Source of the DNA: Verrucomicrobiota bacterium | Lineage (GTDB): Bacteria > Verrucomicrobiota > Kiritimatiellia > UBA8416 > JABMPJ01 | DNA: 64,000 bases | NCBI GenBank assembly: GCA_018648805.1 | Contig: JABGQM010000005.1 | Location: 49,433 to 113,432, forward strand | Direction of reading: 5' to 3' | Position numbers and translations under genes: made by a program | The notes under the pieces: generated by a model | Databases searched by the model: none | Told to the model about the DNA's origin: nothing | What the model saw: only the letters and a program-made list of their open reading frames with translations | In this document: positions 2-60,788 of the stretch, in pieces | Layout of the letters: every line of letters starts with the position of its first letter | How positions within the stretch are numbered: position 1 is the first letter of the stretch

Positions 2-2947
2 CTTAAGGGAGACTTTGATGGTACGCTGGACGCCGATGATGCTGCTACGCAGTATCCGCAGGGCCATGGTGACGCTTACGGTCACTATCTATCAGCGTTA
101 AAGGGCTACTACGGTTACCTGCACCAGACCAATTTCAGTTGGTATCCGCAGGTCGAGGGCATCGTCGTGGGCGACTCCACCGAAGTAACCATTTCCTTCC
201 TTCACGAGAAGAAGTTTGTGACGGCCGCCGCTGCCCGTGCCCGCGCAGGTTCGGCTGTCATCAATCGAACCTGGCGCGACACCTACGCTGAGGACAATGG
301 ATGGCAGGCGGCGCGGGACAGCAATACGAACCGGGCATGGGGCGTGGGTGAATGGGGCTGCCGCGTGGGCATGGGGGCCTATTTCGATTGGCTGACGGCC
401 AATTCGCTTTTGCCGACCAGCGATCCCGACCCGGCTCACGAAGGCATTCGACTGATTGATCGGGTAAATACCCCGGAGCTGGCGGAGTTGGCCAACCAGG
501 GACATCGTGTTCAGCAACAGGTTGACTTTGCTGATACGTCCATGAATCCATTGGGCATTACATCCGATGCGGTACCTTTTGACATCAGCAGCTACGGCAT
601 TGATGACGGCCAGACTCATTTCGAACAGATGTATGATCGTGCCCTGGCCGCGCTGCATAACGCCCTGGGTATCCACAATCGGATCAAAAGCTGTGCGCAG
701 GCTATTCGTGATCAGAATGAGTCCGCGGATCTTGATGTGAAGATTCTGAGTGATGAGGCCCAGATGAACCGGGAGCTGATTGGGATTTACGGGTATCCGT
801 ATGAAGATGATATTGGCCCCGGAAAGATCTATCCACAGGGCTACAGTGGGCCGGACCTGCTGCACTATCTTTATGTGGATACCTGGCCTCTGGATCCGAG
901 CATCATTACCGATACACGTAACGTGCAGATGGAGCTCACCACGTACGACTACGCCTGGGAAACGGAAGATATTACGTTGGCCGCACCCATCTTCTGGGGA
1001 GGGGATGACCAGGACTATGAGATTACCTCTGTGGATTATCAGAGCACGGCGACACACACGGTTGACCTGAACATTGCGGGCAATGGCATTCCCGTCAAGC
1101 CGTCCAGTTACGGGGGCCAGCGTCGTGCCGAGGGGACGATTCAGGTCGCCTTGAGCGAATACTTGACTGCTATGGCGGATGTTTCCTCGGCGTTTGGCGA
1201 TGCTCAGTGGGCGGCCGACGAAGTACAGCGCGAGGCCGATGTGTGGTTGGCGACATACGAGAACCTCACGAATTCAATCTCGTACCGGATGGATACGGCC
1301 GACGATATCCGTCTGATGCAGGGATTCATCTCAGCCCTCGAGATCGCGCAGCTCTTCGGTAACTGGCTGAAGGATTCCATTAGTAAGGTTGATGCGGCTA
1401 TCATTGAGGGCATTCCGAAGGTGCTGGGGCTTGCGAGTGATGCGCTCGCGCCTACACGCGGTGCGCTCAAGATGTCGGCCAAGGCGATTGAGATTACGCA
1501 TGGGCTGACCACCGTCATCGGAGGGGCAGGCATTATCGGGCTGAAAGCCGGCATTGAGGACGAGAAGGTACGCTTGGAGCGTGACCTCGCCGCCTTGGAT
1601 CTGACCCGTGAGGCCACCGAGGCGGGGTACCGTATTCTCAGCCTGCTGCAGGAGCAGAATAACTGGTTGAGCACGGTGCAGGCGCAACTCCAGAAACTGG
1701 AATCGGCAAGAATGCGACTTAGTGCGGCAATCAATCAGGGCGATCTTCTGCTCATGAAACGTGAAACGGCACGCATGATCTGGGCGAGCGAATTGAACAC
1801 CAGCCGCTATCGCAACATGGCGTACCGCGTCTTCCGCAATGATGAACTGGCTCGCTATGACGAAGCATTCGACATGGCTGCCCGCTACGTTTACCTCGCG
1901 GCCAAAGCCTATGACTATGAGACAGGTTTACTGGAGGGTGGTGCCGAGCAAGAGGCCGGCCGCACGTTCATGCGCCAGATTGTCAAGGCCCGGACCTTGG
2001 GCCGTTTCACGGACTGGACCAACCCGAGTGATGGCGACCCGCTGACCGGTGGCCCGGTCGGTGAGCCCGGACTCGCGGATGCCATGGCACGGATGAAAGC
2101 CAACTGGAGCGTTCTCAAAGGCCGGCTGAACTTCAACAATCCACAGGAGGAAACGGGGCTGTTCTCTCTGCGCAGAGAGCTATTCAGGCTGTCGCCGGAG
2201 GCCTCCAGCGATGAGAGCTGGCAGGCCACATTGGCCGCACACAAGGTGTCCAATATTCGGGATATTCCAGAATTCAGGCGTTATTGTCTTCCGTTCGACC
2301 CTATCAAGGACGTAGAGCCGGGCATTGTTATTCCATTCTCGACAACGATCGATTTTGGAAAGAACTTCTTTGGCCGTCCGCTGGCCGCCGGCGACAATGC
2401 GTACGACTCGACGCATTTTGCCACGAAGATTCGGTCTGTAGGGGTGTGGTTTAGTAACTATACCAACGCCTTTGAGTATGGGTTGGCCAATCAGCCGCGA
2501 ATCTACCTGGTACCCGCCGGTGCCGATTCGATGCGTGTTACGTTCGGCGAATCGAGTCGCATCCGACAGTGGCAGGTCGTCGACCAAGCGCTGCCCCTTC
2601 CGTACCCGATTTCGGATGAGCAGTGGCAGGACCCTAACTGGAGTATGTTGGCCGACACACTTGGCAATGAACTCTACAACACGCGCCGACTGCCCGCGAT
2701 GCGCGCCTATCACGACGGTGGTGATGATCCCCTGGTTGAGGTGATGTGGAATTCCCGCTTGATCGGGCGTTCGGTCTGGAACTCCCGCTGGGTCCTGATC
2801 ATTCCGGGCGGCACGCTGTTGACCGACGCCAATGAAGGCCTGGCGCGGTTTATCTACGGTCGACCGACGCCTGCCGGCACACGCGATGGAGAGGGCGTCA
2901 AAGATATTAAGTTCTATTTCCATACGTACTCATATTCGGGTAACTGA
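2..2947 (+). CDS. Large hypothetical protein, 5'-truncated at the window edge
   Basis: ORF track 167..2947. The same frame read from position 2 (LKGDFDGTLDADDAATQYPQGHGDAYGHY...) has no stop, so the gene continues upstream of the window. No recognisable catalytic motif. GC-rich codon usage is consistent with real coding. Confidence 0.5.
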   Translation, partial: LKGDFDGTLDADDAATQYPQGHGDAYGHYLSALKGYYGYLHQTNFSWYPQVEGIVVGDSTEVTISFLHEKKFVTAAAARARAGSAVINRTWRDTYAEDNGWQAARDSNTNRAWGVGEWGCRVGMGAYFDWLTANSLLPTSDPDPAHEGIRLIDRVNTPELAELANQGHRVQQQVDFADTSMNPLGITSDAVPFDISSYGIDDGQTHFEQMYDRALAALHNALGIHNRIKSCAQAIRDQNESADLDVKILSDEAQMNRELIGIYGYPYEDDIGPGKIYPQGYSGPDLLHYLYVDTWPLDPSIITDTRNVQMELTTYDYAWETEDITLAAPIFWGGDDQDYEITSVDYQSTATHTVDLNIAGNGIPVKPSSYGGQRRAEGTIQVALSEYLTAMADVSSAFGDAQWAADEVQREADVWLATYENLTNSISYRMDTADDIRLMQGFISALEIAQLFGNWLKDSISKVDAAIIEGIPKVLGLASDALAPTRGALKMSAKAIEITHGLTTVIGGAGIIGLKAGIEDEKVRLERDLAALDLTREATEAGYRILSLLQEQNNWLSTVQAQLQKLESARMRLSAAINQGDLLLMKRETARMIWASELNTSRYRNMAYRVFRNDELARYDEAFDMAARYVYLAAKAYDYETGLLEGGAEQEAGRTFMRQIVKARTLGRFTDWTNPSDGDPLTGGPVGEPGLADAMARMKANWSVLKGRLNFNNPQEETGLFSLRRELFRLSPEASSDESWQATLAAHKVSNIRDIPEFRRYCLPFDPIKDVEPGIVIPFSTTIDFGKNFFGRPLAAGDNAYDSTHFATKIRSVGVWFSNYTNAFEYGLANQPRIYLVPAGADSMRVTFGESSRIRQWQVVDQALPLPYPISDEQWQDPNWSMLADTLGNELYNTRRLPAMRAYHDGGDDPLVEVMWNSRLIGRSVWNSRWVLIIPGGTLLTDANEGLARFIYGRPTPAGTRDGEGVKDIKFYFHTYSYSGN

Positions 2948-2987
2948 CCGAAGTCCACGGGAGCAACACAGAGGAGTGTTGAATACA

Positions 2988-3818
2988 ATGAAGCATATCG
3001 TCATCGCTGTCATCGCCACACTGTGTGCCGGTCTGTCTGTACGGGCTGGTACGCCGCAGCCCTGTGCGGTAGTCCATGGACTTCTTAAGGACGCCTATGG
3101 ATTCCCCTATGCTGAAGCCTGTACGTTGTCACTGCGCAAGAGTGGTGCGGAGTGTGATCGCTACGAGATCAGTGGTATTCTGGATGGAGGCGGGAATTAC
3201 AGGGTTGAACTCGACATGGATAGCGGAGGTACGCCGTATGCCCCCTATGCCGTCCACCCGGGGGATAAGATAGAGATTGCCGTCTCGGCGGGCGGTGTCA
3301 GCCAGCCGCTCATGCCCACCAACACGTTGTCCGTCGGTGCGGCCGGGTCGTTAACGCGCATGGATTTGTGTACCGGTACGGACCTGGATCATGACGGCCT
3401 GCCTGACGAGTGGGAGCAGCAGCTCGTGGCGCAGTCGGGTGGGGCACTCGCGGGCATTCAAGATGTCAATCCGGGTGATGACTTTGATGGTGATGGCCTC
3501 ACGAACCTGGAGGAGTTTCACTCCGGAACCTTTGCCTTTCTGTCGACTGACCTCTTCAAGATCGACAGGCTGGAGTCGATCTCGGCTAACCGTATGCGGC
3601 TTCGTTTCCTGACAAGTGAGTCTATTACCTATCGGCTGGTTGCCACGCAGAGCCTGTCACCGACATCGTGGGGACAGATCCCTTTTGCGGTGCAGGAAGA
3701 TGGCGCGCCCGGGTATCGGGAGCTTGTAGGGGATGGTGCCTTTCAAGTTATTTATATTGATCTGTCCGACTCGAATATCTTTATTCGGCTGGCGGTAACG
3801 ACGGATCCTCAGCCATGA
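2988..3818 (+). CDS. Secreted protein with calcium-binding DxDxDG motifs (thrombospondin type-3-like)
   Basis: ATG at 2988 is preceded by GAGGAG. N-terminus MKHIVIAVIATLCAGLSVRAG looks like a signal peptide. Motifs DLDHDGLPDEWEQQ and DFDGDGLTNLEEFHSGT are present. The ORF-track start at 2832 is probably too far upstream. Confidence 0.55.
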   Translation: MKHIVIAVIATLCAGLSVRAGTPQPCAVVHGLLKDAYGFPYAEACTLSLRKSGAECDRYEISGILDGGGNYRVELDMDSGGTPYAPYAVHPGDKIEIAVSAGGVSQPLMPTNTLSVGAAGSLTRMDLCTGTDLDHDGLPDEWEQQLVAQSGGALAGIQDVNPGDDFDGDGLTNLEEFHSGTFAFLSTDLFKIDRLESISANRMRLRFLTSESITYRLVATQSLSPTSWGQIPFAVQEDGAPGYRELVGDGAFQVIYIDLSDSNIFIRLAVTTDPQP

Positions 3819-4354
3819 ATGACCTGCCTGTAAAACGCCTGGCGCGAGCGGGCAGCGCGACTCTGAGCTTCCTGCTTCAGAGGATAAGCGTTCGGAGCTG
3901 GGGGCGCCGCCTTACTCCATCTCGAATTGTGGTGCTACTGCTCGGTCTGGTCTGTTGCCTGCCTATGCCGGTCCGTGGCGATATGTGGACCAATGTTGCC
4001 GGTCACGCCGTTGAGCTTGACCTGATCGATCTACAGGGCAACATGGCCACATTTGAACGGCCGGACGGGCAGCCGTTCCGGTTGCCCCTTGCCAGTCTCT
4101 GTGTCACAGACCGTGCGCGGGCCCGTCTGGAGTGGCATCAAGTGGCTATACCCATAGGCCTGCGCCCGGCGTACAATCAGTGCCGCCGCCAACTCAAGCG
4201 TTTGACTCGTCTGCGCCAAGCCAAGCGACTCGCACAGGATGACTATGTGGTCTATCGGCGCGGTTTTGTGGTGCATTTTAAGGCCGCTTGCATGCGCCTC
4301 AAACTCACAGAAGAGAATCGATCGCGCATCATAATGACACTCAGCGGGTATTAG
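3815..4354 (+). CDS. SHD1 (SLA1-homology) domain-containing secreted protein
   Basis: Hydrophobic leader IVVLLLGLVCCLPMPVRG. The segment MWTNVAGHAVELDLIDLQGNMATFERPDGQPFRLPLASLCVTDRARARLEWHQ fits the W-T-D...G...(V/L)...G..(V/I)P...LS..D pattern of SHD1 domains. The start codon overlaps the upstream stop. Confidence 0.45.
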   Translation: MNDLPVKRLARAGSATLSFLLQRISVRSWGRRLTPSRIVVLLLGLVCCLPMPVRGDMWTNVAGHAVELDLIDLQGNMATFERPDGQPFRLPLASLCVTDRARARLEWHQVAIPIGLRPAYNQCRRQLKRLTRLRQAKRLAQDDYVVYRRGFVVHFKAACMRLKLTEENRSRIIMTLSGY

Positions 4355-4370
4355 GCAGGCAGTGATACGT

Positions 4371-7300
4371 ATGACTAGACACATAGTAGCCGGAACTGGA
4401 CTTTTTCTACTTGCCGCTATACTCGGTACCACCGCTGTCGCAGAGCCGCCCGTGGCCGGAAGCGGCACGTTTGTTACCAATGCACACTCTTTGGTCGTGG
4501 ATTCCGGTGGTGCCCGCCGCTTCCTCAATATTGCGATTGGCGACATCAATGCCAGCGGTGCGCTTGACCTCATGGCGCCAAGTTGGAAGGGCTCAAGTGC
4601 GCTCCTTTTTACAAACGATGGCAGCGGTGTGTTTAGCGCCCAAACCGTGGATGTGCCCCTGGCCTCATTGGTCGACGTCGCGTTGAGCGATTTGAATGGC
4701 GACCTCCAGCCGGATGCCCTGTTTGGTTGCGAGACCCAAAGCGTGGTGACCGCCACCAACGATGGCGGTGGGCTGTTGTCCGGATGGCAGGCTGCCTACG
4801 CGGGAGGCGCGGACGATCCGGTACGCCGCGTTGTGACATGCGACTTGGATGGCGGCGGCAGCCAGGATGTCGTGGCGATTACGGAGCTCTCCGGCGAACT
4901 CGTTACACTGCTTAATGACGGGAGTGGTTCATTCAGTCTGGGCCAAACGATCCATTGCAGCGCGCCGCTGTATGATCTCGATGTGGGAGATCTGGACGGT
5001 AATGGGTCGTGTGATGCGGTGGTTGTTGGACCGGCGGGGTACGTCTCTGTTATGACCAACGACGGGTCCGGCACGCTGACGGCTGCCTATACCTATGACG
5101 TCGGTGCTCAGAGCCTCTTTGGTTGCCGGATTGCGGATATGGACACGGACGGGCTAATGGATATCGTGGTGGTTGGTGAAGAGGGACTCGTGGCTATCGG
5201 GCATGGGGCGGGATCAGGCTTTTCGTTTGCGACGATCGAACAAACCGTGATCGCGTCTACAATCTATGGTCTGGCGTTAGGGGACTGCGATGTCAATACC
5301 TATCCGGATATTGTGATCACGGGCTTCGAAAAAGTTGGCGTCCTGCTGAATGGGGATGGTAGCGAGTTTATCGTGAATAGATCCCCGGTCATTCTGTCAG
5401 GGAGGCATCTGCGCGACGTCGAGGTGGGCGACCTCGATGGGAACGGCAGTCTTGATATTGCGGTATGCGGCCTCTGGTCCGGATCACTTCATCTGCTTTG
5501 GAACACCTCCCCTTCGGCGCCGTCAGTCCTGGGCACGAATGGCACTCAGATCAGCAGTGGCGAGGCGGCGGACCTCGCCAAAGGCACAGACTTTGGCTCG
5601 TCGCCGCTTCTATCTCCTGTTACGAATCAATTCACACTGCTCAACCAGGGCGGAGGCGTGTTGGAGATTGTATCGGCTGAGCTCAGCGGCGTATCGACTT
5701 CCGTCATGTGGCTGGTGGATATGCCTGACCAAGTCCAAGCATCTGCGACCTCCCATTTTGGCGTCGTATTCTCGCCAGAGAGTCTGGGTCCTGTGTCGGC
5801 CGTGCTCAGAATCAACAATAATGGCCCCTTGGCAACGGATCCTTATGCTCTCAACCTGGCAGGCACGGGGGTCAAGAGGCCTGTCAGTGTGCTGGAGCTG
5901 AGTTCCACCAACCATGTCTATGACGGAACGGCGCACGAAGTGATTGTGGCTGTAGCGCCTGCGGTTACGACGGACGTATCCTATGTGGGGTATGCGATGC
6001 CTCCTACCAACGCGGGGCAATACACGGTAACAGTGGACGTGCAGGATCCAGTCTATGTTGGCTCGCTGACCGGACTGATGACTGTTGCGCAGCGTCCGTT
6101 GACCGTTAGCTGCGGCGACTACGCGCGTGGCTATGGTGTGACCAATCCGGTGTTTGCGCTCAGCTATACCAACTTCGCTCAGGCCGAAGGTATCAGCGAT
6201 CTGACCGTGGCGCCTCAGGCAACCACGCTGGCCACGCAGGGCTCAGATGTGGGAAGCTATGGAATTACGTTGTCGGGGGGTGTGGCATCGAACTACAGCT
6301 TCGCCTATCAGGGCGGAACGCTGAGCGTAACACAGCTGGTACTGCAGGTTGCGGCGGAGAATAAGAGTCGCTATTTTGGGGTAACAAATCCGCCGCTGAC
6401 CTTGGCGTGGAGTGGTTTTCACACAGGCGAGGGGCCCGATGTTCTCGACCAACGTCCCTCCGTGGCGACCACGGCCACACAGCTCAGCCTGCCCGGAACA
6501 TATCCTATCACCGTTACGGGTGGGTCTGATACGAACTATAGCCTCGTGCGCAGTAACGGCACGTTCCGGATTCTGGCTGCACCGGCATTCATTAGTCTTG
6601 GCGATCTGAATCAGCCATATACGGGCGGTCCCGCCCCCGTTTCGGTTGCGACGGTTCCCACCGGCCTAAGTCATCGCGTGACGTATGACGGCAGTACGAT
6701 CATCCCAACAGTCGCAGGCTCGTATGCGATCTTTGCCGAGATTACCGAGGCGCTCTACGCGGGCGAGGCGAATGGCACCCTGGTGGTATCCCGGGCGCAG
6801 CAAACCATCACATTTTCTTCGATCGCACAACAGGTCGCCACGAACACGACTGCGCTGGCGGCAACAGCCTCCAGTGGTCTTGATACGACGTTTACGCTTG
6901 TTGACGGTCCCGCCAGCCTTTCTGATGGATCAAACATCACATTCAGTGCGAGCGGTACCGTAGCGGTGGCAGCTCATCAAGTGGGCAATAGCAATTGGTT
7001 GGCCGCGGTGTCGGTAACACAGCAGTTCGATGTGGTGCGCGCACCCGTTGCTATTGCAATCGGCCTGACCAATCAACTCTACGATGCGACGGTCAAAACG
7101 GTAACAGTGAGCACGGTCCCGGGTGACCTGCCGTATAGCGTGACCTATGATGGTGCTGCGTTGACACCGACCAATGCCGGGCTGTATGCCGTAAGCGTCA
7201 GCGTGGACGAGCTCCTGCATGCCGGGACCGGTACGGGCTTGTTGACGGTCGCGCAGCGAGAACTTACGGTGTGGGCCGAAGACCAGTCGCGCGCCTATGG

Positions 7301-10300
7301 CGCAACCAATCCTGTGTGGACATTCAGCTACACCAACTTCGCTAGTGGCGAGGACCCGACGGACTTTAGTGTATGGCCCCAGGCCACGACGCCTGCCGTG
7401 ATCACCTCGACGGTGGGGGCCTACTCGATTGTTCCCAGTAATGCGTTCGCCGCCAATTACAGCTTTGCGTACTCGAATGGTACGTTGTCGGTTACACAGG
7501 CCGTACTGCAGGTGGCCGCGGACAATAAGGCGCGCGTCTATGGTGCAGCCAATCCGCCGCTGACATTGAGCTATCGCGGGTGGCGCAACGGCGACACCAC
7601 CCATGACCTCACCGTGATTCCGATGGGTGTTACGACTGCTTCTACTGCAACGTCGGTGGGGCAGTGCCTCATCAGCGTGACCAATGGTGTCGATGAAAAT
7701 TACGCATTCGACTATACCAATGGGCTCCTGACAATCTATGCAGCGACGGCAGTACTATCGATCGGAGAGACTCAACAAGTCTATAATGGTGCCGCCCGCC
7801 TGGTGTCGGTAACGACACAACCGTCGAATCTGAATGTGCGTGTCACTTATGCTGGCCGTGAGACGGCGCCGACCAATGCCGGTAACTATGCCGTTGAGGC
7901 CATCGTTGCTGAGACCAATTACGTTGGAACCAATACGTCCGTACTGACCGTGTCGCGGGCCCCACAGGCCATCACCGCGTTTCTACCGAGCAGCGGGGAC
8001 TACCCCAGCGAGAAGCTGTTGACGCTTGCGGCGGACGGAGCTGCTTCAGGCTTGCCTATCCAGTTTGAAATTGAATCCGGCCCCGGTGTGATGATGGCAA
8101 GTAATGTGGTGCGCTTTACGGCATGCGGGACCGTTCGGGTAACGGCAACGCAACAGGGCGACTCCAACTGGCTTGTTTCTCCGACCCTAACCAATAGCTA
8201 TGTGGTCATTGATACGAATGCCGTACACTACGTGGCTATGAATGGCCAGACCTCTGTGTGGCCCTATGCAAGCTGGGCGACAGCGGCCAGCAATCTGCAG
8301 GATGCCGTCGATATAGCGGCGGATGGTGATCGGGTGCTTGTGAACGACGGACTGTACGACACCGGTGGACGCGCGTTGCCGGGGCATCTGTTGACGAACC
8401 GACTGTGTGTCACGAACACCATTACCGTGCAGTCCGTGAATGGACCGCGCCACACCTTGATCGCAGGACAGGCAGGCACGGGCTCGGAGGCTCCGTTGGG
8501 GCCAGATGCCATGCGCGGCATTTACCTGGCCGATGGTGCCGTGTTGGCGGGCTTTAGCGTAACGAACGGCTGCACCCACGGGGCAGAAAGTGCGTCGGAA
8601 GTCGATCAGTCGGGCGGTGGTATCCTGATGTCGAGTGGCAGTGTGGTCAGCAACTCTCTGATCACCGGCAATGTGAGCCTATACGGCGGAGGGGCCTATG
8701 GCGGCACGCTATTGCGGTGCGAGGTCCTCGGCAACAGGGCGGTGTTCGATGGCGGTGGTGCGCACGGCAGTGTGGCGGCGAACAGCAGTTTTGTGGGCAA
8801 CACGGCCCGTTTTGGTGGTGGGATGTTCCGCGGGGTGTTGAGCCAAAGCACGGTGGTGCGTAACGAGGCGCTGTATGGGAGTGGCGCCTTTGAGTGCGAT
8901 GTGCGAAATACGATCATCTATCACAACCAGGACGAAGACCTCTTTGGCGGGAATGTCGTGAACTCCTGTGCCGGTGATGGTGTGGTGCAAGGCGTGGACG
9001 GCTGTATCACCAACAGCCCCATGCTTGTGGATGTAGCCGCTGGAGATCTGTACCTGCAGCATGAGTCGCCCTGTATCAATGCGGGATCGAATGGCGACGT
9101 TCCCATGACCGGTGGCGTGCCAGTGGCGGACCTGGCCGGCCGTCCGCGCATCATGCATGCGACGGTGGATATGGGCGCACACGAATATGACGGCACGCCG
9201 GACACGCCGGGTATCCTGGCCGCCACACAGATCGAAGCCCATCGCTTCACGGCCAACTGGACGGCACCGGGTGGTACGGTATTGGTGCGAGCTTACACGG
9301 TAGAGGTCACCAATGCTGTTGCGCAGACGTCCATCCCGGTCCTGGATGGTGCTCAGGAGAGTCTAACGGTTACCGGACTGACCGAATCTGTGTTGTATCA
9401 CTATCGTGTTCGCGCAGAGAACGAATACACCGTCGGGGGGTGGTCAGAGTGGACCAACCTGGTGACGCTGTCAGAAGGAGCAATGGCCCTGCCGAGCCGT
9501 TTGGGCTTTGAGGCGACCTACGGAGGTCCCAATCCGGTTGCCTATGTGTTTGCCTTCACCAACTATGGCGAAACGGCATTCGCTTGGTCCAACACGATCG
9601 CCTACAGCACACCGGCTGAAACATGGTTGACGATGAGCCCCTTGCAGGGCAGCGTGATGGCGATGGGAACGGCTCCCGTGACGGCCAGCGTCGATATGGC
9701 TGGGATGGACGCGGGGATTTACAGAGCCACCAACACCTATGTCTCGGCCACGGCGACCCATAGTCCGCAACTGCAGGCGGTCGAGTTCACGATTAGCCGG
9801 GGCGTGGATACGATCACGTTCACCCAGACCAACCACGTCTACGATGGGTCCTCAAAAGCCGTTGCGGCCAGCTCGGCGAGTGGATCACCGGTGAGTGTAA
9901 CCTATGATGGGGCCACTCAACCGCCCACGAATGCAGGGGCCTATGCTGTCGTCGGCGTGGTCGATACGATCAACTGGACCGGCACCAACACGGCCCTGTT
10001 GACCCTCAGCAGTGCTGAACAGTCGATCACGGCATTTCTGTCCCAACCCGGGACCTATGACAATACGAACGTATTAGCGTTGGCGGCCTCGGGTGGCGGT
10101 AGCGGTCAACCCGTGGTATTCAATGTGCTCTCAGGTCCTGCCGTTCTAGAAGGGATCGACCGGCTGCGCTTCACTGGTATTGGCGATGTTCAGGTTACCG
10201 CATCGCAGGCCGGCGACGCCAACTGGTCGGCCGCCCCGGTCCTGACCAACCTCTACACTGTTGTGCCGGTAAGTAACCTGGTGCATTACGTTGCCCAGAA

Positions 10301-12773
10301 CGGCCAGACATCGGTCTGGCCCTATGCCTCCTGGGATATGGCCGCCGGCACGATTCAGGATGCCGTGGATGCAGCCTATCCGGGCGACCGCATTATCGTA
10401 GGACCCGGCGTCTATGCCGCCGGAGGTGCATCCGCCACGGGGTTGACACTCTCTTCGCGGGTCTATGTCGATAAGGCTGTCACGATTCTGAGCGCCGATG
10501 GTCCGGAGACCACTTGGATTGTCGGGGCCGCCGCCTCAGGCGGCGGAAACGGTCCCGGCGCCGTCCGCTGTGCGAATCTGAGTGGGGGCGCCATACTCGA
10601 AGGCTTCATGCTGACCGGCGGCCATTCGCTGGGTGGCCTGGACCTGCTGGAAGACCGCTCGGGTGGCGGCGTATACCTGACTGATACGGCTGAAGTGCGC
10701 TATTGCGTGCTCCGTGACAACGGGGCACATGAGTATGGCGGGGGCGCCTACCTGGCTGAGGGAGGCCGGCTCATCAACTGTCTGGTCGTCAGCAATGAGA
10801 CTGTCGTGGGCGGTGGGGTCTACCTGTTCCGGGGCGGTGAGGTCTACAACAGTACAGTGGTTGGCAACCATGCCGCCGCCGAAGGGGGCGGGTTGCATCT
10901 TTTCGAAGGCGGCGCGGTGCACAACACGGTGTCATACGACAATACGGCCCTCCTTTCTGGGCACGATGTCTCCGTGCAGGGCGCCGGACCCAGCGTCGGC
11001 TACAGCTGTGCGTCTGATGGTGTTGTACACGGATTGAATGGATGTATCACCAATCCGCCGTCCTTTGTAAACGCAGCCATCGGCGATTACCATCTCCAGG
11101 CTGTATCGCCCTGTCGTGATGCGGGTGACGATACCGCTGTGCGCTCCAGTGTTGATTTGGATGGTGATCCGCGTGTTCTCAACGGCGTTGACATGGGGGC
11201 AGACGAATACATGACGGCACCATCACTAAACGTGCCATCCAACCAGGTGGTGAACGTGGTCTATGGCGACCCGAACCCGGCCGCGCTTGCCGTGCTTCTC
11301 GGCAATACGGGTGGGATGCCTTATGTCTGGTCCCATTCGGTTACCTACAGCGCTGCGGGTACTGGGTGGCTGACGGTCACGCCGGAGACGGGCGTTGTGG
11401 GGGCCCTGTCTGATGTCGAGCTTCTACTGAATGTTGACCTGTCCGGGTTGGGCGTCGGTAATTACGCTGCGACGAATGAGCTATCGGCCGGGGCGGCCAC
11501 CAACACGCCTCAGCAGTTTGTCGTGACGCTGACGATTACTCCTGCCCCCACAACGGGATCCATCGAGGGTACCGTCAGCTATGCCGGTGCCGAGACCGGC
11601 GTGGTCGTGGTGGCGGCGTACACCAACATCGCGATGGACCACGCCCCCGTGGCTTTCGTCGAGCAAACGGTCCCCGGCCCCTATGCCTTCACTGATCTGG
11701 ATCCGGGCACATACTATCTTGTTGCGACGATGCTAGTGGCTCCTCTGCCGGATGCTGATCACATTCGTTACTCTGATCCGTGGAGCATGTATACCTCGAC
11801 CACCAGCGCGGTGCCGGTCGCAGTGAACGCCGGTGACCTGCTTGACCAGCGCGACATGGCGTTGGTGGCAGGGACCATCGATGCGCCAAATCGCTTCGCG
11901 TCGCCCGGTGTGTATGGAGATTTTGATGGCGATTGGAGAGCAGACCCAGCCATCCGACGCGATACGGATGGTAAGATTCGGGTTCGGCTTTCGACGACCG
12001 GCACGGTATGGATGGAGTCGCGCGGCTGGAAGGCATGGATACCAGCGGTGGCTGACTACGATGGTGACGGGATGGCTGATCTGGCCTGGTATGCGCCTGG
12101 CGCAAGCGAGTGGCACATATTTGAAAGCAGCAGGGGCTATGCTGAGCGCCTGCCGCGTGAGCCTCTGGGAGTGACGGGTGACCTGCCTGTGCCGGCCGAT
12201 TACGACGGGGACGGCAGAGCCGACCCGGCCGTGCGGCGAAAGATCGATGGCAAAATTCGGGTTCGGCTTTCGACGACCGGCACGGTCTGGATGGAGTCGC
12301 GCGGCTGGAAGGCATGGATACCAGCGGTGGCTGACTACGATGGTGACGGGATGGCTGATCTGGCATGGTATGCGCCTGGCGCAAGCGAGTGGCACATATT
12401 TGAAAGCAGCAGGGGCTATGCTGAGCGCCTGCCGCGTGAGCCTCTGGGAGTGACGGGTGACCTGCCTGTGCCGGCCGATTACGACGGGGACGGGAAAGCC
12501 GATCCGGCCGTCGCCCGCAACTCCGATGGCAGGATTCGGGTGCGCCTTTCAACAACTGGTAAGATCTGGATGGCGTTCCGTGGCTCGAAGACATGGATAC
12601 CGGCAGTGGCTGACTACGACGGTGACGGGAAGGCTGATCTGGCGTGGTATGTTCCCGAGGTAAGCGCGTGGCGCATCTATGAGAGCAGCAGGGGCTATGC
12701 TGAACGTCTGCCTCGTGAACTCTTGGGTGCCACCATGGATCTTCCCGCTATTGGGCCGTGGTTCGCCTGGTAG
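4371..12773 (+). CDS. Giant multi-domain surface/adhesin-like protein (N-terminal FG-GAP repeats, many MBG repeats, two parallel beta-helix modules, FN3, C-terminal FG-GAP-like tandem repeats)
   Basis: Signal-peptide-like N-terminus MTRHIVAGTGLFLLAAILGTTAVA; a GTG at 4362 is an alternative start. FG-GAP motifs: DLNGDLQPDALFG, DLDGNGSCDAVVVG, DMDTDGLMDIVVVG. Repeated MBG-type units, e.g. YDGTA.EV...YVGY..PPTNAGQYTVTV. Beta-helix repeats: GGAYGGTLLRCEVLGNRAVFDGGGAHGSV... FN3-like: FTANWTAPGG...HYRVRAENEY..GWSEW. A single 8.4 kb uninterrupted ORF. Confidence 0.7.
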   Translation: MTRHIVAGTGLFLLAAILGTTAVAEPPVAGSGTFVTNAHSLVVDSGGARRFLNIAIGDINASGALDLMAPSWKGSSALLFTNDGSGVFSAQTVDVPLASLVDVALSDLNGDLQPDALFGCETQSVVTATNDGGGLLSGWQAAYAGGADDPVRRVVTCDLDGGGSQDVVAITELSGELVTLLNDGSGSFSLGQTIHCSAPLYDLDVGDLDGNGSCDAVVVGPAGYVSVMTNDGSGTLTAAYTYDVGAQSLFGCRIADMDTDGLMDIVVVGEEGLVAIGHGAGSGFSFATIEQTVIASTIYGLALGDCDVNTYPDIVITGFEKVGVLLNGDGSEFIVNRSPVILSGRHLRDVEVGDLDGNGSLDIAVCGLWSGSLHLLWNTSPSAPSVLGTNGTQISSGEAADLAKGTDFGSSPLLSPVTNQFTLLNQGGGVLEIVSAELSGVSTSVMWLVDMPDQVQASATSHFGVVFSPESLGPVSAVLRINNNGPLATDPYALNLAGTGVKRPVSVLELSSTNHVYDGTAHEVIVAVAPAVTTDVSYVGYAMPPTNAGQYTVTVDVQDPVYVGSLTGLMTVAQRPLTVSCGDYARGYGVTNPVFALSYTNFAQAEGISDLTVAPQATTLATQGSDVGSYGITLSGGVASNYSFAYQGGTLSVTQLVLQVAAENKSRYFGVTNPPLTLAWSGFHTGEGPDVLDQRPSVATTATQLSLPGTYPITVTGGSDTNYSLVRSNGTFRILAAPAFISLGDLNQPYTGGPAPVSVATVPTGLSHRVTYDGSTIIPTVAGSYAIFAEITEALYAGEANGTLVVSRAQQTITFSSIAQQVATNTTALAATASSGLDTTFTLVDGPASLSDGSNITFSASGTVAVAAHQVGNSNWLAAVSVTQQFDVVRAPVAIAIGLTNQLYDATVKTVTVSTVPGDLPYSVTYDGAALTPTNAGLYAVSVSVDELLHAGTGTGLLTVAQRELTVWAEDQSRAYGATNPVWTFSYTNFASGEDPTDFSVWPQATTPAVITSTVGAYSIVPSNAFAANYSFAYSNGTLSVTQAVLQVAADNKARVYGAANPPLTLSYRGWRNGDTTHDLTVIPMGVTTASTATSVGQCLISVTNGVDENYAFDYTNGLLTIYAATAVLSIGETQQVYNGAARLVSVTTQPSNLNVRVTYAGRETAPTNAGNYAVEAIVAETNYVGTNTSVLTVSRAPQAITAFLPSSGDYPSEKLLTLAADGAASGLPIQFEIESGPGVMMASNVVRFTACGTVRVTATQQGDSNWLVSPTLTNSYVVIDTNAVHYVAMNGQTSVWPYASWATAASNLQDAVDIAADGDRVLVNDGLYDTGGRALPGHLLTNRLCVTNTITVQSVNGPRHTLIAGQAGTGSEAPLGPDAMRGIYLADGAVLAGFSVTNGCTHGAESASEVDQSGGGILMSSGSVVSNSLITGNVSLYGGGAYGGTLLRCEVLGNRAVFDGGGAHGSVAANSSFVGNTARFGGGMFRGVLSQSTVVRNEALYGSGAFECDVRNTIIYHNQDEDLFGGNVVNSCAGDGVVQGVDGCITNSPMLVDVAAGDLYLQHESPCINAGSNGDVPMTGGVPVADLAGRPRIMHATVDMGAHEYDGTPDTPGILAATQIEAHRFTANWTAPGGTVLVRAYTVEVTNAVAQTSIPVLDGAQESLTVTGLTESVLYHYRVRAENEYTVGGWSEWTNLVTLSEGAMALPSRLGFEATYGGPNPVAYVFAFTNYGETAFAWSNTIAYSTPAETWLTMSPLQGSVMAMGTAPVTASVDMAGMDAGIYRATNTYVSATATHSPQLQAVEFTISRGVDTITFTQTNHVYDGSSKAVAASSASGSPVSVTYDGATQPPTNAGAYAVVGVVDTINWTGTNTALLTLSSAEQSITAFLSQPGTYDNTNVLALAASGGGSGQPVVFNVLSGPAVLEGIDRLRFTGIGDVQVTASQAGDANWSAAPVLTNLYTVVPVSNLVHYVAQNGQTSVWPYASWDMAAGTIQDAVDAAYPGDRIIVGPGVYAAGGASATGLTLSSRVYVDKAVTILSADGPETTWIVGAAASGGGNGPGAVRCANLSGGAILEGFMLTGGHSLGGLDLLEDRSGGGVYLTDTAEVRYCVLRDNGAHEYGGGAYLAEGGRLINCLVVSNETVVGGGVYLFRGGEVYNSTVVGNHAAAEGGGLHLFEGGAVHNTVSYDNTALLSGHDVSVQGAGPSVGYSCASDGVVHGLNGCITNPPSFVNAAIGDYHLQAVSPCRDAGDDTAVRSSVDLDGDPRVLNGVDMGADEYMTAPSLNVPSNQVVNVVYGDPNPAALAVLLGNTGGMPYVWSHSVTYSAAGTGWLTVTPETGVVGALSDVELLLNVDLSGLGVGNYAATNELSAGAATNTPQQFVVTLTITPAPTTGSIEGTVSYAGAETGVVVVAAYTNIAMDHAPVAFVEQTVPGPYAFTDLDPGTYYLVATMLVAPLPDADHIRYSDPWSMYTSTTSAVPVAVNAGDLLDQRDMALVAGTIDAPNRFASPGVYGDFDGDWRADPAIRRDTDGKIRVRLSTTGTVWMESRGWKAWIPAVADYDGDGMADLAWYAPGASEWHIFESSRGYAERLPREPLGVTGDLPVPADYDGDGRADPAVRRKIDGKIRVRLSTTGTVWMESRGWKAWIPAVADYDGDGMADLAWYAPGASEWHIFESSRGYAERLPREPLGVTGDLPVPADYDGDGKADPAVARNSDGRIRVRLSTTGKIWMAFRGSKTWIPAVADYDGDGKADLAWYVPEVSAWRIYESSRGYAERLPRELLGATMDLPAIGPWFAW
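11970..12773 (+). repeat. Tandem 279-bp (93-aa) coding repeat, ~2.9 copies, at the 3' end of the giant gene. Copies 1 and 2 are near-identical at nucleotide level; copy 3 has diverged.
   Basis: Unit starts at ~11970, 12249 and 12528, giving a 279-bp period. Encoded unit: DGKIRVRLSTTGTVWMESRGWKAWIPAVADYDGDGMADLAWYAPGASEWHIFESSRGYAERLPREPLGVTGDLPVPADYDGDG.ADPAV. Confidence 0.85.
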
Positions 12774-17807: not shown

Positions 17808-18995
17808 TTAGGGTGACTCGTGAATCAGATAACGTGCGGCCAGCGCCTGGTAGCCGGCGCGGGCCTGTTTCTTCAGAGTGGCCACCCGCGTGGTCCAGGC
17901 CGGTCGGAGCTCCCCGTCGTTGGCGCTGAGTCGTTGCACCTGGGCCGCCAGTCCAGCAGCGGAAAAATCCGCCAGCTCGATCAACGACTCGGGGGTGCCC
18001 ATCAGCTCCATGAAATGGCGCACCTTGGGCGCATAGGCCAGGCCGATGCAGGGCACATCCATGGCCGCCGCCAGGATGAGTGAGTGCAGGCGCATGCCCA
18101 CAAAATAGCGCATGCGCCCCATGGTTCCCATCAGCTCCTCAGAGGAGTACCGACCGTTGTCGAGCACAGCCACGCGGTCGCGACGGTTGACGTGTGCGAG
18201 GACCCCCTCGGCGTAGGCAATATCCATGATCTGGGTCACGACCAGCACCACGCGGCAGTCCTGCTCTTCAATCAGCAGGTCGACCGCTCTGGCCAGCTCC
18301 GCAGCAAACTGGGTGCCGTCAATTCCCTCCGACTTCTTGAGCCACTGGTCGACGTAGCTGTTGACGTTGATCCCGATCAGCGGCTGCGCCGTGTCGGCCA
18401 GGCCGTTTTCCTTCAGGATCTCGTCCACCCGTTCCTCACCGGCGGGCGGATCCACAAAGGCGGCATCCGCATAGACCTCAATCCGCTCGGACGGAATGCC
18501 CACCGATTCGAGCAGTGTCTTCGAGTCGTTCTCGCGCACCCAGATCGCGTCACAACGGTCGCACACAAAGCGTGCACATTTCTGGCCCAGCCGACTATCG
18601 AGCGGTCCGATGCCCACCAGGAAACAGATCACCGGTTTGCGGAACAGTCGCGCCAGCGGCACGACGAACACCAGCAGGATCAGGAAGTTGAAAATCGGGT
18701 TGAGCAGCTTGACGTCAAAGATGATACCGTCGGTGATCAATACCGCATCGGATCGTTTGATCGAGCAGGCGGTGGTCCACCCGATGAAGCGCAGGCTCAA
18801 GTTCCACGGCATCATCGGCACGCCGCGCACCACATCCGACGGATAGCGGCGACTGATATCGCGCTTGCGTGGGGCCGGTACCTCGAAGCGCGTCCCGGGC
18901 GCCTGCTCCAGCGTGTTGTGTATAATTGAGGAGAGAATCGCCGCATCGCCGGCATTTCGCCCCGAGTTCGAGCCCAGTACACAGAGTGTTGCCAT
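17808..18995 (-). CDS. Polysaccharide pyruvyl transferase family protein
   Basis: N-terminus LCVLGSNSGRNAGDAAILSSII (G..GN.GD motif). C-terminal YFVGMRLHSLILAA..VPCIGLAYAPKV matches the WcaK/CsaB-type family pattern. Confidence 0.65.
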   Translation of the reverse strand: MATLCVLGSNSGRNAGDAAILSSIIHNTLEQAPGTRFEVPAPRKRDISRRYPSDVVRGVPMMPWNLSLRFIGWTTACSIKRSDAVLITDGIIFDVKLLNPIFNFLILLVFVVPLARLFRKPVICFLVGIGPLDSRLGQKCARFVCDRCDAIWVRENDSKTLLESVGIPSERIEVYADAAFVDPPAGEERVDEILKENGLADTAQPLIGINVNSYVDQWLKKSEGIDGTQFAAELARAVDLLIEEQDCRVVLVVTQIMDIAYAEGVLAHVNRRDRVAVLDNGRYSSEELMGTMGRMRYFVGMRLHSLILAAAMDVPCIGLAYAPKVRHFMELMGTPESLIELADFSAAGLAAQVQRLSANDGELRPAWTTRVATLKKQARAGYQALAARYLIHESP

Positions 18996-45414: not shown

Positions 45415-47299
45415 AGCCCATCTGAAAAGGGTTTCGGACCGGGGTTCTGAGTTCAAAGTTCACGGTTCAAGGTTGCCTCCGGGCGTGACAAGCACCCCCC
45501 TTGAGCATTTTTCGGATGCCGTGCCTCAATGACGCGTGATTTCACCATTTTTTGAGACAGCTCGTCCATGCTGTTCCCTCCACTCCGTACGAATCGGCCA
45601 TTCAGGCCGCTTTATCCAAAGCCTCCCGTCGTCGCTTCCTCATCAGGATGATGCGGCAGCAGTTGTAGGCCAGCACCTTTTCCATCAACTCCGACCGAAC
45701 CGCCTCTATACCCCGGCGACCCAATTCGCCGAATTCAAAGCCGTCCTTTATCGTGAACATCAGAGACTCGACCGCCGAGCGGTCCCGCCGAGCTCCGCGA
45801 TATGTCTCGCTTTCCCACTCATTGAGGCCGGTCAACTTCTTGCCTTTGGCCCCGCTGATGCTGATATCCTCTACGCCCATGTCCAGCACTTCATCGCGCC
45901 CCTTTGCTGAAGCATATCCATCGTCAGTACTGACCAGTGCGGCCGTCACTCCCGTGCGCTTGATGGACTCACGGATTGCCGGCACCAGTTCAATAGAGTC
46001 AGCCGCGTTCCCCTCCGGAACGATCAGGCTGGTGACAAAACCGTTTGCGCTACGAACCAGTTGTGGCCTATATCCGATAACCGGCAAGCGGCTGCCCTTC
46101 TTGATATAGGCAGCCGATCCGTCCGACAGGCTCAGGACCTTCTCCGTCGAGGGAAGCTTCTTGTCGTGAAACACTCGGTCATTGGCGTAGTCGATAACTC
46201 TGTTTCCATCGGCGAGGTCAGCTTTGACCTGATCCAACACTCGCTGTAGAAGCACGCGGCGACTGGGCGGGAGCGTCTCTATCAACAGTTCCTGCTCAAG
46301 GCGGTTGAGTTCCGTTGTCAACGCGTTCGCCGCCTTGCGTCCAAGTCTGAGCAATCCCCGATAACGTTTCTTCAATTTGACGATGGAATTCGCCTTGCCC
46401 GCTACCAGGCAAATCTGAAACACCAGCTTGTCCATCTCTTCGAGCCAGCGAGCAACCCAGCCTTGCCGAAAATTCTCGAACCCGAATACATTCAGTTTCT
46501 GCCCCAGACGATTCGCCCGCATCAGCAGCCCCGTAAGGATCTTCGCATCGGTGGGCCAACTGCTGTTGGCCTTCACCGAGGTACTGTCGATCGTCAGTTT
46601 CAAGAAGTCATCCAGATCTTCTTTGAGAACAAACTTGATCTGTTCATCGAATATCACGTTCAACGTCTTGGCGCTCACCAGATTTATGTTTTCCAGAATC
46701 GTGGTTACGCCCGGCATCGTCAGATCACGGTTATCAAGATAAGCGTATAAGCTCATCGACTCGCGCAGAAAGCGCCTCGATGTCTTTGACGCCAACGAGC
46801 CACCCAGAAATCCGCGGATCATCACAAACAGATAAACCAGCTCCGCCGACATACGTGGCCGCCCCGTGCCTAGCTCCAATTGATCAGCCAGGAGCTCCGC
46901 GTCCGCCACATGAAGGTCGGGTAGATCCAATGTCGTGATCTCAAAGAACTTCCGATCCTCGATTCGAAGCTTCTTCTTGGCGCGTGCATTGGCATCCAGG
47001 TCTTTCTCGATTTCCTCAATGATTTTCGGTGCGAATCGGGACAACGCGTCCACTTCGTCGAGATAATCACGAAAGTCGGTGTCTGGAACCGGCAAAATCA
47101 GGTTGTAGATAGGGGCGGCTTCTGCTAGCTTCTGCTGTGTCGCACATGTTGGCATGCTCAACTCCTTGAGTAGTGTTAAGTTGTTGAACACTAGCATGTT
47201 GCGACACATTCTTGCAAGCCTGAAATCGGATATTGTCAACTTTTTCTTTGCGGTCCTTGCGTTCTTTCGCGGTGAATAAAGACCTTCTCAGATAACGTC
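45414..47299 (-). mobile_element. Insertion sequence (~1.89 kb, IS5/IS1182-superfamily-like) with a TAATTA target-site duplication and imperfect terminal inverted repeats
   Basis: Direct repeat ctaatta/taatta at 45407-45413 and 47299-47305. Left end gagcccatctgaaaagg versus right-end reverse complement gacgttatctgagaagg match at 12/17 positions. Interior GC is lower than the flanks. Removing the element plus one TSD copy restores the interrupted reading frame. Confidence 0.65.
45602..47239 (-). CDS. DDE transposase (IS1182/IS5-like)
   Basis: 545-aa ORF fills the IS. C-terminal RRDRSAVESLMFTIKDGFEFGELGRRGIEAVRSELMEKVLAYNCCRI resembles the conserved C-terminal block of IS5/IS1182-type DDE transposases. 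Confidence 0.6.
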   Translation of the reverse strand: MTISDFRLARMCRNMLVFNNLTLLKELSMPTCATQQKLAEAAPIYNLILPVPDTDFRDYLDEVDALSRFAPKIIEEIEKDLDANARAKKKLRIEDRKFFEITTLDLPDLHVADAELLADQLELGTGRPRMSAELVYLFVMIRGFLGGSLASKTSRRFLRESMSLYAYLDNRDLTMPGVTTILENINLVSAKTLNVIFDEQIKFVLKEDLDDFLKLTIDSTSVKANSSWPTDAKILTGLLMRANRLGQKLNVFGFENFRQGWVARWLEEMDKLVFQICLVAGKANSIVKLKKRYRGLLRLGRKAANALTTELNRLEQELLIETLPPSRRVLLQRVLDQVKADLADGNRVIDYANDRVFHDKKLPSTEKVLSLSDGSAAYIKKGSRLPVIGYRPQLVRSANGFVTSLIVPEGNAADSIELVPAIRESIKRTGVTAALVSTDDGYASAKGRDEVLDMGVEDISISGAKGKKLTGLNEWESETYRGARRDRSAVESLMFTIKDGFEFGELGRRGIEAVRSELMEKVLAYNCCRIILMRKRRREALDKAA

Positions 47300-49337: not shown

Positions 49338-50774
49338 TTGGTCTTTAGTTCTCTACTCTTTCTGTTGGTGTTCCTTCCCGTCTTTCTTGGGATTTACTAC
49401 GCCAGCCCCAGGTCCTGGCGCAATGCCGTAGCGGTAGCAGGCAGTCTGCTCTTCTACGCGTGGGGTGCTCCGCGATTCATAGTGGCCCTGCTGGGCTCCT
49501 GCCTGGTTGACTATGTCTGTACACGCAAGATGGGATCCGACCCCCAACGCACGCGTGCTCGTATTGTTCTTGCGATTGCCTTCAATGTGAGCGTTCTCGT
49601 CTTCTTTAAATACTCGAACTTCATGGTGCAGCAGTGCAATGGGCTCCTTGGCTCGATATCATCTGGTGGTGTGATTCCCTGGAAGACCATCGCGCTGCCC
49701 ATCGGGATCTCTTTCTTCACATTCCAGAAGATCAGCTATCTGGTGGATGTGCGGCGAGAGCGCATGGAGCCGGCCCGCACCTTTCTGGATTACCTGCTCT
49801 ATGTCTGTCTGTTTCCTCAACTGATAGCAGGACCCATCGTGCGGTACCACGATGTGGCCCGTCAGATCACGAGTCGTGTTCACTCCACACTGCTGGTCTC
49901 TGATGGGTTCCGCCGGTTCGTGATCGGGCTGGCCAAGAAAGTGCTGATTGCCAACCATGTGGGGCTGATTGCTGACGCGACGTTCAACGGATCGCCCAGT
50001 CATCTGTCCTGTGGCCAGGCGTGGATCGGGGTCATCGCCTATAGCTTTCAGATCTACTTTGACTTCTCTGGTTACTCCGACATGGCTATCGGTTTGGGTC
50101 GGCTGATGGGGTTTCGGTTTCTCGAGAACTTCAATAGGCCTTACCTCGCGATCGGTTTTACCGATTTCTGGCGTCGATGGCATATCTCGCTTTCCAACTG
50201 GATGCGGGAGTATCTGTATCTACCCCTCGGGGGAAATCGCGTATCACACTTTGTGCAGATTCGGAATCTCTGGATTGTGTTTCTGGTGTCTGGACTCTGG
50301 CATGGCGCCAGTTGGAATTTTGTGGCGTGGGGTGCCTATCATGGTCTCTTCCTCTCCTTGGAAAAGGGGCGTAGGGTACAATCGCTTCTCACGGTTCTGC
50401 CCGCCTGGGTTCGCAGGTCTGTGACGTTCCTGCTGATATCCATTGGATGGTGTTTCTTTCGTGCCGGTACGTTCGAGGGGGCTCTGGCAATGATCTCACG
50501 GTTGTTCACCTTAGGTCCGGCTACAGCGGCGATCGTTCCCATACGAAGCTTGGCGTATTTGCTGAGCCCTAGAATCGCAGTGGCCCTGCTGGTCGCCGCC
50601 ATACTCAGTTTTTGGCCGGAATCCGGGCGTAGCCATCGGAAGGTGGTGCCGGGTTCTGGGGTGTGGACAGTGGACCATCTGTTCTCTGCCGCCGGGACGA
50701 TCGTGCTGTTGCTGGCCTGTGTCGGGGCTCTGACGGTCCAAGATTTTAACCCCTTCATCTACTTCAGGTTCTAG
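49338..50774 (+). CDS. MBOAT family membrane-bound O-acyltransferase (AlgI/DltB-like), copy 2
   Basis: Paralog of 43846..45294 with the same motifs: FFTFQKISYLVDVRRE, YFDFSGYSDMAIGLGRLMGF, WRRWHISLSNWMREYLYLPLGGNR. N-terminus MVFSSLLFLLVFLPVFLGIYY. Confidence 0.75.
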   Translation: MVFSSLLFLLVFLPVFLGIYYASPRSWRNAVAVAGSLLFYAWGAPRFIVALLGSCLVDYVCTRKMGSDPQRTRARIVLAIAFNVSVLVFFKYSNFMVQQCNGLLGSISSGGVIPWKTIALPIGISFFTFQKISYLVDVRRERMEPARTFLDYLLYVCLFPQLIAGPIVRYHDVARQITSRVHSTLLVSDGFRRFVIGLAKKVLIANHVGLIADATFNGSPSHLSCGQAWIGVIAYSFQIYFDFSGYSDMAIGLGRLMGFRFLENFNRPYLAIGFTDFWRRWHISLSNWMREYLYLPLGGNRVSHFVQIRNLWIVFLVSGLWHGASWNFVAWGAYHGLFLSLEKGRRVQSLLTVLPAWVRRSVTFLLISIGWCFFRAGTFEGALAMISRLFTLGPATAAIVPIRSLAYLLSPRIAVALLVAAILSFWPESGRSHRKVVPGSGVWTVDHLFSAAGTIVLLLACVGALTVQDFNPFIYFRF

Positions 50775-60682: not shown

Positions 60683-60788
60683 ATTGGTATAGTGGATCCC
60701 CAAATAGCAGGTAGGTAGCCTGATACCCCGTGGTCATCCCGACGACGGGGAACTTGAACCAGTAAACACTAATATGGAGAATCATAAC

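Follow-up and report, generated by a model that had tools for sequence, protein, structure and literature searches.

Results

The stretch of DNA examined here, referred to below as the window, comprises 64,000 nucleotides (nt) of contig JABGQM010000005.1 (assembly GCA_018648805.1) from a Verrucomicrobiota bacterium. It contains a + strand open reading frame (ORF, 4362..12773) encoding a giant protein of 2,803 amino acids (aa), and a tandem array of 279-base units lies in frame at the 3' end of this ORF. We conclude that the encoded C-terminal region, from about aa 2515 to aa 2803, is one six-bladed FG-GAP/VCBS propeller. The near-identity of its first two repeat units seems most readily accounted for by gene conversion long ago within the array, over a tract of about 248 base pairs (bp).

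Tandem Repeats Finder (TRF) reports a single large array at 11967-12718, with a period of 279, 2.7 copies, 89% matches, 0 indels and a score of 1166. The initial annotation had started the repeats at 11970, 3 nt inside this array, a difference that is immaterial, and had read them as coding for the C-terminus of a giant surface protein. The repeats are indeed coding, in frame and located at the C-terminus of a giant protein with a signal-peptide-like N-terminus. In a blastn search of the window with unit 1, the match to unit 2 spans 266 nt at 97.4% identity (E 1.6e-128) and that to unit 3 spans 194 nt at 81.4% (E 2.4e-50), and a self-comparison of the whole ORF protein gives 40/40 identities at an offset of 93 aa and 33/40 at an offset of 186 aa. 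The similarity among the 279-base units is far beyond chance.

Units 1 and 2 differ at 15 of their 279 bases. Their spread is uneven (Fisher P = 5e-9): the first 248 bp contain four of them, each synonymous, and the last 31 bp contain 11. The longest stretch without a mismatch covers 128 bp (12087-12214). The handful of differences that had been described over the full 279 bp is thus found within the first 248 bp only. The third copy, which is shortened by the stop codon, is clearly diverged, as had also been remarked, both in its blastn identity to unit 1 and in its synonymous divergence of about 1. Two DYDGDG motifs had been assigned to every unit; units 1 and 2 each contain two copies of DYDGDGxxD, and unit 3 contains one. 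Two antisense ORFs, at 11689-12594 (-) and 11733-12395 (-), 301 and 220 aa long, overlap the repeat region and most likely arose by chance in a GC-rich, repeated coding sequence.

The C-terminal 307 aa of the protein (aa 2497-2803) match the Pfam families FG-GAP (PF01839; 3e-28, 97.6 bits, cut-off 22.1) and FG-GAP_3 (PF13517, VCBS; 8.5e-21, 74.8 bits, cut-off 26.9). A motif scan found six DxDxD[G/W]xxD motifs, at aa 2520, 2565, 2613, 2658, 2706 and 2751, with a spacing that alternates between 45 and 48 aa; five of the six read DYDGDGxAD and one reads DFDGDWRAD. The 93-aa unit can be divided into two blade-length segments, namely an atypical 45-aa segment A (…ADPAVRRKIDGKIRVRLSTTGTVWMESRGWKAWIPAVA) and a 48-aa segment B that fits the family consensus (…ADLAWYAPGASEWHIFESSRGYAERLPREPLGVTGDLPVPA). 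An AlphaFold2 model generated from a 72-sequence alignment has a mean predicted local distance difference test score (pLDDT) of 92.1 and a predicted template modelling score (pTM) of 0.88, with pLDDT below 50 only in the first 18 linker residues and above 90 from model residue 21 onward. The best structural neighbours of this model are six-bladed, and Foldseek matches to the seven-bladed FG-GAP relatives ITFG2 and PVL reach a template modelling score (TM) of only about 0.5.

Sequence models, the DxDxDG motif and the beta-propeller fold all place the domain in the FG-GAP/VCBS family. In integrin and PVL propellers, the DxDxDG loop forms a cation site between strands A and B (PMC8023676), and DSSP assignments read together with the alignment would put the loop between the same strands of the blades here. 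The FG-GAP Pfam family and the Ca-binding type of DxDxDG loop are common to the window domain and to integrin alpha and PVL-type propellers, and PVL and ITFG2 are among the Foldseek matches. The initial annotation had proposed calcium-binding, blade-like motifs in a beta-propeller-like domain, and the Pfam matches and the confident predicted model bear this out, the motifs being the DxDxDG loops of FG-GAP/VCBS blades. A seven-bladed propeller of the integrin alpha type was also considered and does not fit the six motifs, the six blade-length segments and the six-bladed best structural neighbours.

To consider how such a ring would close, we looked at the two ends of the domain. Inside the array, a short strand precedes each Ca loop (…PVPA-DYDGDG or …IPAVA-DYDGDG), and the protein ends in a strand that is followed by no loop (DSSP strand at model residues 298-299). 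The closest homologues end in D-W-P-L-A-x-P-x-x-G-W, with the stop directly afterwards in three of four and two further residues in the fourth, P0002, and the terminal W is invariant across the homologue alignment (A3). Another close homologue, P0008, starts right at its first DFDGD loop, with no preceding strand. Given the strand-loop order in the array, the loop-less end strand and the start of P0008, the simplest reading is that blade 1 receives its innermost strand from the C-terminal end of the chain, which would amount to a velcro closure.

Divergence among the units was estimated at synonymous (dS) and non-synonymous (dN) sites by the Nei-Gojobori method. Over their first 246 nt, units 1 and 2 show 4.0 synonymous and 0 non-synonymous differences (dS 0.071, dN 0), and if this block were neutral the chance of all four differences being synonymous would be about 0.003. 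Over the codon-aligned 33-nt tail, the same two units give a dS of about 0.94 and a dN of about 0.31, and unit 3 compared with either of them gives a dS of 1.0-1.1 and a dN of 0.125. The unit tails and unit 3 are thus saturated at synonymous sites (dS about 1), and both copies of the tract appear to have been kept under purifying selection since they were made alike. The bounded tract, the saturated tails and the four synonymous and 0 non-synonymous changes since then would together imply a long, stable co-existence of units 1 and 2.

Two other origins of this pattern were tried and set aside. The three 33-nt tails, that is, the one upstream of unit 1 (e0) and those of units 1 and 2 (t1 and t2), are mutually equidistant, with 20-22 of 33 positions identical, and t1 was therefore rejected as an unequal-crossover hybrid of e0 and t2. 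A target of a diversity-generating retroelement does not fit the block differences, which are T/C, G/A, A/C and C/A with no consistent adenine copy and are all synonymous; no search for a reverse transcriptase was made.

The exact protein is not on record, and no relative above 49% identity was found in the collections searched, 49% being the best of 4,037 significant matches among 5.8 billion proteins. A scan of a genome collection retrieved relatives at 25-41% identity only, all of them aligned to the region around aa 1997-2393, and in a metagenome scan identity peaked at 45%. The nearest homologues of the propeller, P0002 and P0008, are each about 300 aa long and stand alone; at 45-49% identity, they share its six blades, its 45/48 spacing pattern and its C-terminal end. 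Of 80 metagenome relatives, 48 have exactly six motifs at regular spacing, and most of these 48 carry the last one 43-56 aa ahead of the stop; one relative has seven motifs, and the remainder have fewer, partly due to truncated contigs or degenerate motifs. Six is the usual blade count across about 110 family members.

In the window propeller, blades of the same type are on average 0.81 identical and A and B blades 0.30, with A-A and B-B pairs at 69-100% and consecutive blades (A vs B) at 27-36%. By two-blade unit, the consecutive pairs are 96% identical for units 1 and 2 and about 76% for unit 3. P0002 and P0008 share the A/B distinction in weaker form (same-type 0.54 vs 0.33 and 0.41 vs 0.33, respectively), as do two metagenome loci, L076 and L043 (0.72-0.73 vs 0.56-0.57), and about 100 other six-motif members show no difference between even and odd blades. 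As far as these sequences go, the comparison shows the window propeller as the extreme of an (AB)3 subtype. No unit-by-unit orthology with P0002 and P0008 was seen, identity within each protein being higher than identity between proteins. Three further metagenome loci (L044, L023 and L009) encode six-bladed FG-GAP propellers whose blades share 77-84% identity on average and as much as 98% in single pairs, and these look like recent whole-domain amplifications of a single blade within the same family.

Table 1. Positions of the giant gene and of the elements of its C-terminal domain in the window.
Feature	Coordinates	Strand	Description	Basis
Giant multidomain protein ORF	4362..12773	+	2,803 aa	ORF list, translation, Pfam and NCBIfam matches
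First, degenerate loop DFDGDWRAD	11919..11945	+	aa 2520-2528; would open blade 1; upstream of the TRF array	Motif scan
Repeat unit 1	11967..12245	+	aa 2536-2628; motifs 12054-12080 and 12198-12224; remainder of A blade, whole B blade, strand and Ca-type loop opening the next A blade (predicted)	TRF, alignment, motif scan
Putative homogenised tract, copy 1	11967..12214	+	Pairs with 12246-12493 at 98.4% identity	
Unit 1 diverged tail	12215..12245	+	Encodes G-RADPAVRRKI; 11 differences from unit 2 tail	
Repeat unit 2	12246..12524	+	aa 2629-2721; motifs 12333-12359 and 12477-12503	TRF, alignment, motif scan
Putative homogenised tract, copy 2	12246..12493	+		
Unit 2 diverged tail	12494..12524	+	Encodes G-KADPAVARNS	
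Repeat unit 3	12525..12773	+	aa 2722-2803 and stop codon; one motif, 12612-12638; ends in the putative closing strand	
C-terminal strand MDLPAIGPWFAW	12735..12770	+	Orphan 'strand A', loop-less, directly before the stop	

The giant protein as a whole has many domains. From the N-terminus, it comprises a signal-peptide-like segment, an FG-GAP_3 repeat region, a choice-of-anchor D match, MBG_2/MBG_3 arrays, two choice-of-anchor Q matches, fn3, BACON-like stretches and the C-terminal propeller. The signal-peptide-like segment (MTRHIVAGTGLFLLAAILGTTAVA) was read from the sequence and is putative, and no recognised C-terminal sorting signal was matched in Pfam and NCBIfam searches of the whole protein. 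Two other, older duplications were seen within the protein: that of a large module at about aa 1169-1600 and about aa 1855-2290 (offset about 686 aa, best window identity 29/40), and that of MBG modules at about aa 640-680 and about aa 1030-1070 (offset 388 aa, 30/40). Directly upstream of the giant gene are three + strand ORFs (167-2947, 2832-3818 and 3815-4354, encoding 926, 328 and 179 aa), none of which has a Pfam match at E <= 0.001.

The region is rich in surface-glycan genes, including those for a PMT_2-like membrane protein, a GT2, a pyruvyl transferase, an epimerase, a GT4, and DltB-like and DltA-like proteins. The pyruvyl transferase is encoded at 17808-18995 (-). The DltB-like MBOAT gene (49338-50774, +) and the gene for an adenylation-domain protein of 878 aa (55290-57926, -), which is DltA-like or nonribosomal peptide synthetase-like, both score below equivalog cut-offs, and the GT2 and GT4 genes give weak TuaG and TuaC matches, also below cut-offs. 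Taken together, the Dlt-like and Tua-like genes and the pyruvyl transferase suggest a decorated anionic surface polymer, as judged from these sequence matches. An ISNCY-family transposase ORF (45602-47239, -; 266.5 bits, below the 325-bit equivalog cut-off) is located inside the glycan-synthesis region, in which GC content shows a local dip to about 0.54-0.57. No housekeeping gene that could inform taxonomic placement was seen among the genes of the window.

Towards the end of the window are two tandem paralogous genes (60774-62543, +, and about 62646 to beyond 64000, +, the latter leaving the window), both encoding six-motif FG-GAP propellers. Both products begin with a signal-peptide-like stretch and contain an N-terminal domain of about 160 aa and DYDGDG motifs spaced 44-55 aa apart, and the complete one (60774-62543) has an extra C-terminal region of about 130 aa. 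Compared with the repeat unit of the giant protein, the propellers of these paralogues show 37-40% identity.

Discussion

We consider the following account of the array to be probable as a whole. Three 93-aa units, each made of a 45-aa A blade and a 48-aa B blade, would join the upstream DFDGDW loop and the C-terminal strand in a closed six-bladed propeller, in which the (AB)3 layout would produce a pseudo-threefold symmetry and each blade would carry a DxDxDGxxD loop of the type known to bind Ca2+ in the propellers of integrin alpha and of the PVL lectin. The three units would have parted from one another in the distant past, all at roughly one time (dS about 1). A non-reciprocal transfer of about 248 bp would subsequently have allowed unit 2 to overwrite unit 1, or the reverse, while the 31-bp tails were spared, and the time since then would have been long enough for four synonymous substitutions, with both copies under purifying selection. 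Placed at the far end of the giant secreted protein, the domain may serve as a Ca-stabilised, lectin-like ligand-binding module with pockets between its blades, and the conversion would have left two of the three unit-level sites identical, which would favour multivalent binding of a repeating glycopolymer. The 98%-identical tracts could now and then recombine, so that one in-frame unit is added or removed and eight or four blades result.

Several points weigh against this account. The blade number and the closure of the ring are drawn from a predicted model and its structural neighbours, and gene conversion is proposed from one sequence, the pre-conversion state being seen in no sister sequence. 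Binding of Ca2+ would follow from the loop motifs, and the lectin-like function from analogy with UmbA4, a structurally solved propeller to which the identity is 21%; in UmbA4, pocket residues are not conserved even among its own blades (PMC13274773). The three units of this one assembly may not represent a fixed number in the population. Finally, the three-unit state could have arisen separately in each lineage instead of being inherited from a common ancestor. Ancestral triplication followed by concerted evolution and independent triplication are both possible histories, since identity within each protein exceeds that between proteins and unit orthology was not seen.

The proposed history can be set beside what has been described for other propellers. 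Amplification and homogenisation of blades are well documented, including 'locally repetitive' propellers with a few near-identical neighbours in an older domain; VCBS-type propellers are the second most sampled group, and repetitive regions lie mostly at protein termini (PMC9218822). The window domain likewise has near-identical neighbouring repeat units in an older domain, a terminal position and the DxDxDG loop, as in locally repetitive VCBS/FG-GAP propellers (PMC9218822, PMC8023676), and mean blade identities of up to 0.84 also occur among the family members found here. Highly repetitive propellers in the sense of that survey have consecutive blades of high identity, and the window domain could be counted among them only if a two-blade unit is accepted in place of the single blade. 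It differs from them in that the unit is two blades and the identity is confined to a bounded tract with saturated flanks, which argues for conversion within an existing array rather than for new amplification. Because amplification from a two-bladed fragment is reported only once in that survey (PMC9218822), (AB)3 would represent a less common variant. In the RSL and AAL-family fucose lectins, a six-bladed propeller is also built from two-blade units, as in the window domain. The RSL monomer consists of two blades. The trimer of this lectin forms a six-bladed ring from three pieces (PMC6631993).

The nearest solved relative bears on function. A plain sequence search of the PDB with the propeller domain gave no match, and a search with the family profile gave 9oee_A as its sole match (E 6.8e-12). 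This entry is UmbA4, an umbrella toxin protein of Streptomyces coelicolor. Its C-terminal six-bladed propeller is a lectin for teichuronic acid, with one binding site between blades 5 and 6 and another on blade 4; from blade to blade, the Ca-type loops are conserved and the pocket residues diverge (PMC13274773). The blades of UmbA4 are longer than those of the window domain and form a degenerate single-blade repeat, in contrast to the two-blade units of (AB)3, and the ligand-contact residues of UmbA4 are not expected to be conserved here. We also considered whether the giant protein could itself be the UmbA lectin spoke of an umbrella toxin and rejected this, as the whole protein gives only FG-GAP, MBG, fn3 and choice-of-anchor Q/D matches and no trypsin-like domain. 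The window neighbours scanned are glycan-synthesis genes, and the propeller alone is shared with UmbA.

Among the alternatives, the one that survives best assigns the propeller a different role as the giant protein's own anchor, holding it non-covalently to an anionic surface glycopolymer of the adjacent locus in place of a sorting signal. The protein has choice-of-anchor D and Q domains and no matched sorting signal. The choice-of-anchor class accompanies interchangeable anchors. Moreover, the gene sits in a glycan-synthesis region, two more six-motif propeller proteins are encoded in the same window, and UmbA4 binds a cell-wall teichuronic acid (PMC13274773). The glycan-gene context would be compatible with a propeller that binds the cell's own glycopolymer as an anchor. 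However, the anchor reading is purely contextual; the Tua and Dlt matches fall well short of curated cut-offs, and the propeller is internal, not C-terminal, in the other two window proteins. We regard an anchoring role as unlikely. Equally unlikely is the joint claim of a natural single-chain propeller of (AB) modules in the VCBS family that is partly homogenised by intragenic conversion and is also a Ca-dependent anchor to an anionic (pyruvylated, teichuronic- or teichoic-like) glycopolymer made by its own locus.

Somewhat less likely still is a recent tandem duplication, with an array that still changes its copy number by recombination and so causes strain or phase variation of an adhesin tip, as the initial annotation had envisaged. 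In its favour are tandem 248-bp tracts of 98.4% identity with a perfect run of 128 bp. Such tracts are adequate substrates for homologous recombination, and rare RecA-dependent loss or gain of a unit is plausible. Any such gain or loss would stay in frame, since 279 = 3 x 93, and WD40 blade constructs of differing copy number folded as oligomeric six- to nine-bladed propellers (PMC6805158). Nevertheless, a fresh 279-bp duplication predicts uniform identity; in fact the last 31 bp, where dS is about 0.94, account for 11 of the 15 differences, and the unit 1 tail is no hybrid. The copies are not identical: the dS of 0.07 with a dN of 0 in the block, next to saturated tails, weighs against frequent turnover and would fit a unit pair long maintained under selection. 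The proposed recent or frequent duplication is at odds with this bounded 248-bp tract and its purely synonymous changes.

The same reasoning applies to variation in use. A 279-nt unit cannot shift the reading frame, and in-frame changes in unit number cannot turn expression on or off, which leaves no place for phase variation as an on/off switch. Free variation in repeat number fits poorly with the closed six-bladed ring of the model and with the layout shared by stand-alone homologues as distant as 45-49% identity. The copy number looks structurally fixed, since six blades and the same C-terminal end recur in homologues and six is usual in the family. Copy number as a used or freely drifting variable is thus not supported, being argued against by the frame, the synonymous divergence and the conserved ring. 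We would like to note that tolerance or use of four- or eight-bladed variants, while unsupported, should not be declared impossible, because fragments of WD40 blades with other blade numbers still fold as oligomers, while constructs derived from tachylectin and PknD kept the parental fold (PMC6805158).

The weakest alternative, that the assembler expanded or collapsed the repeat number, is very improbable: near-identical 279-bp repeats are a classic problem in short-read assembly, but the copies are distinguishable by 4 block and 11 tail differences with a longest identical run of only 128 bp, a spurious copy added by the assembler should match its source exactly, the reading frame stays open as far as the conserved C-terminal strand, and the three units yield exactly the six-blade layout of independent homologues.

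Conclusions

For annotation, the repeat is to be treated as one structural domain with a fixed six blades and not as an open-ended stalk of variable length, and mis-assembly is unlikely because the three-unit count matches that of independent homologues. The domain is an FG-GAP/VCBS propeller with local homogenisation, a neat but unremarkable instance of how propeller repeats evolve, in which the two-blade unit is mildly unusual, and current understanding is not overturned. If the joint claim of conversion and anchoring were true, the two-blade-module propeller would be a case of a mode of evolution seen once in the main survey (PMC9218822). With regard to protein evolution, the array would provide a clean natural example of a two-blade unit building a six-bladed propeller and, through its bounded conversion tract, of concerted evolution within a closed repeat fold. 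With regard to function, it suggests a lectin-like C-terminal module on the giant protein, related to a propeller that has been experimentally shown to recognise a cell-wall glycopolymer.

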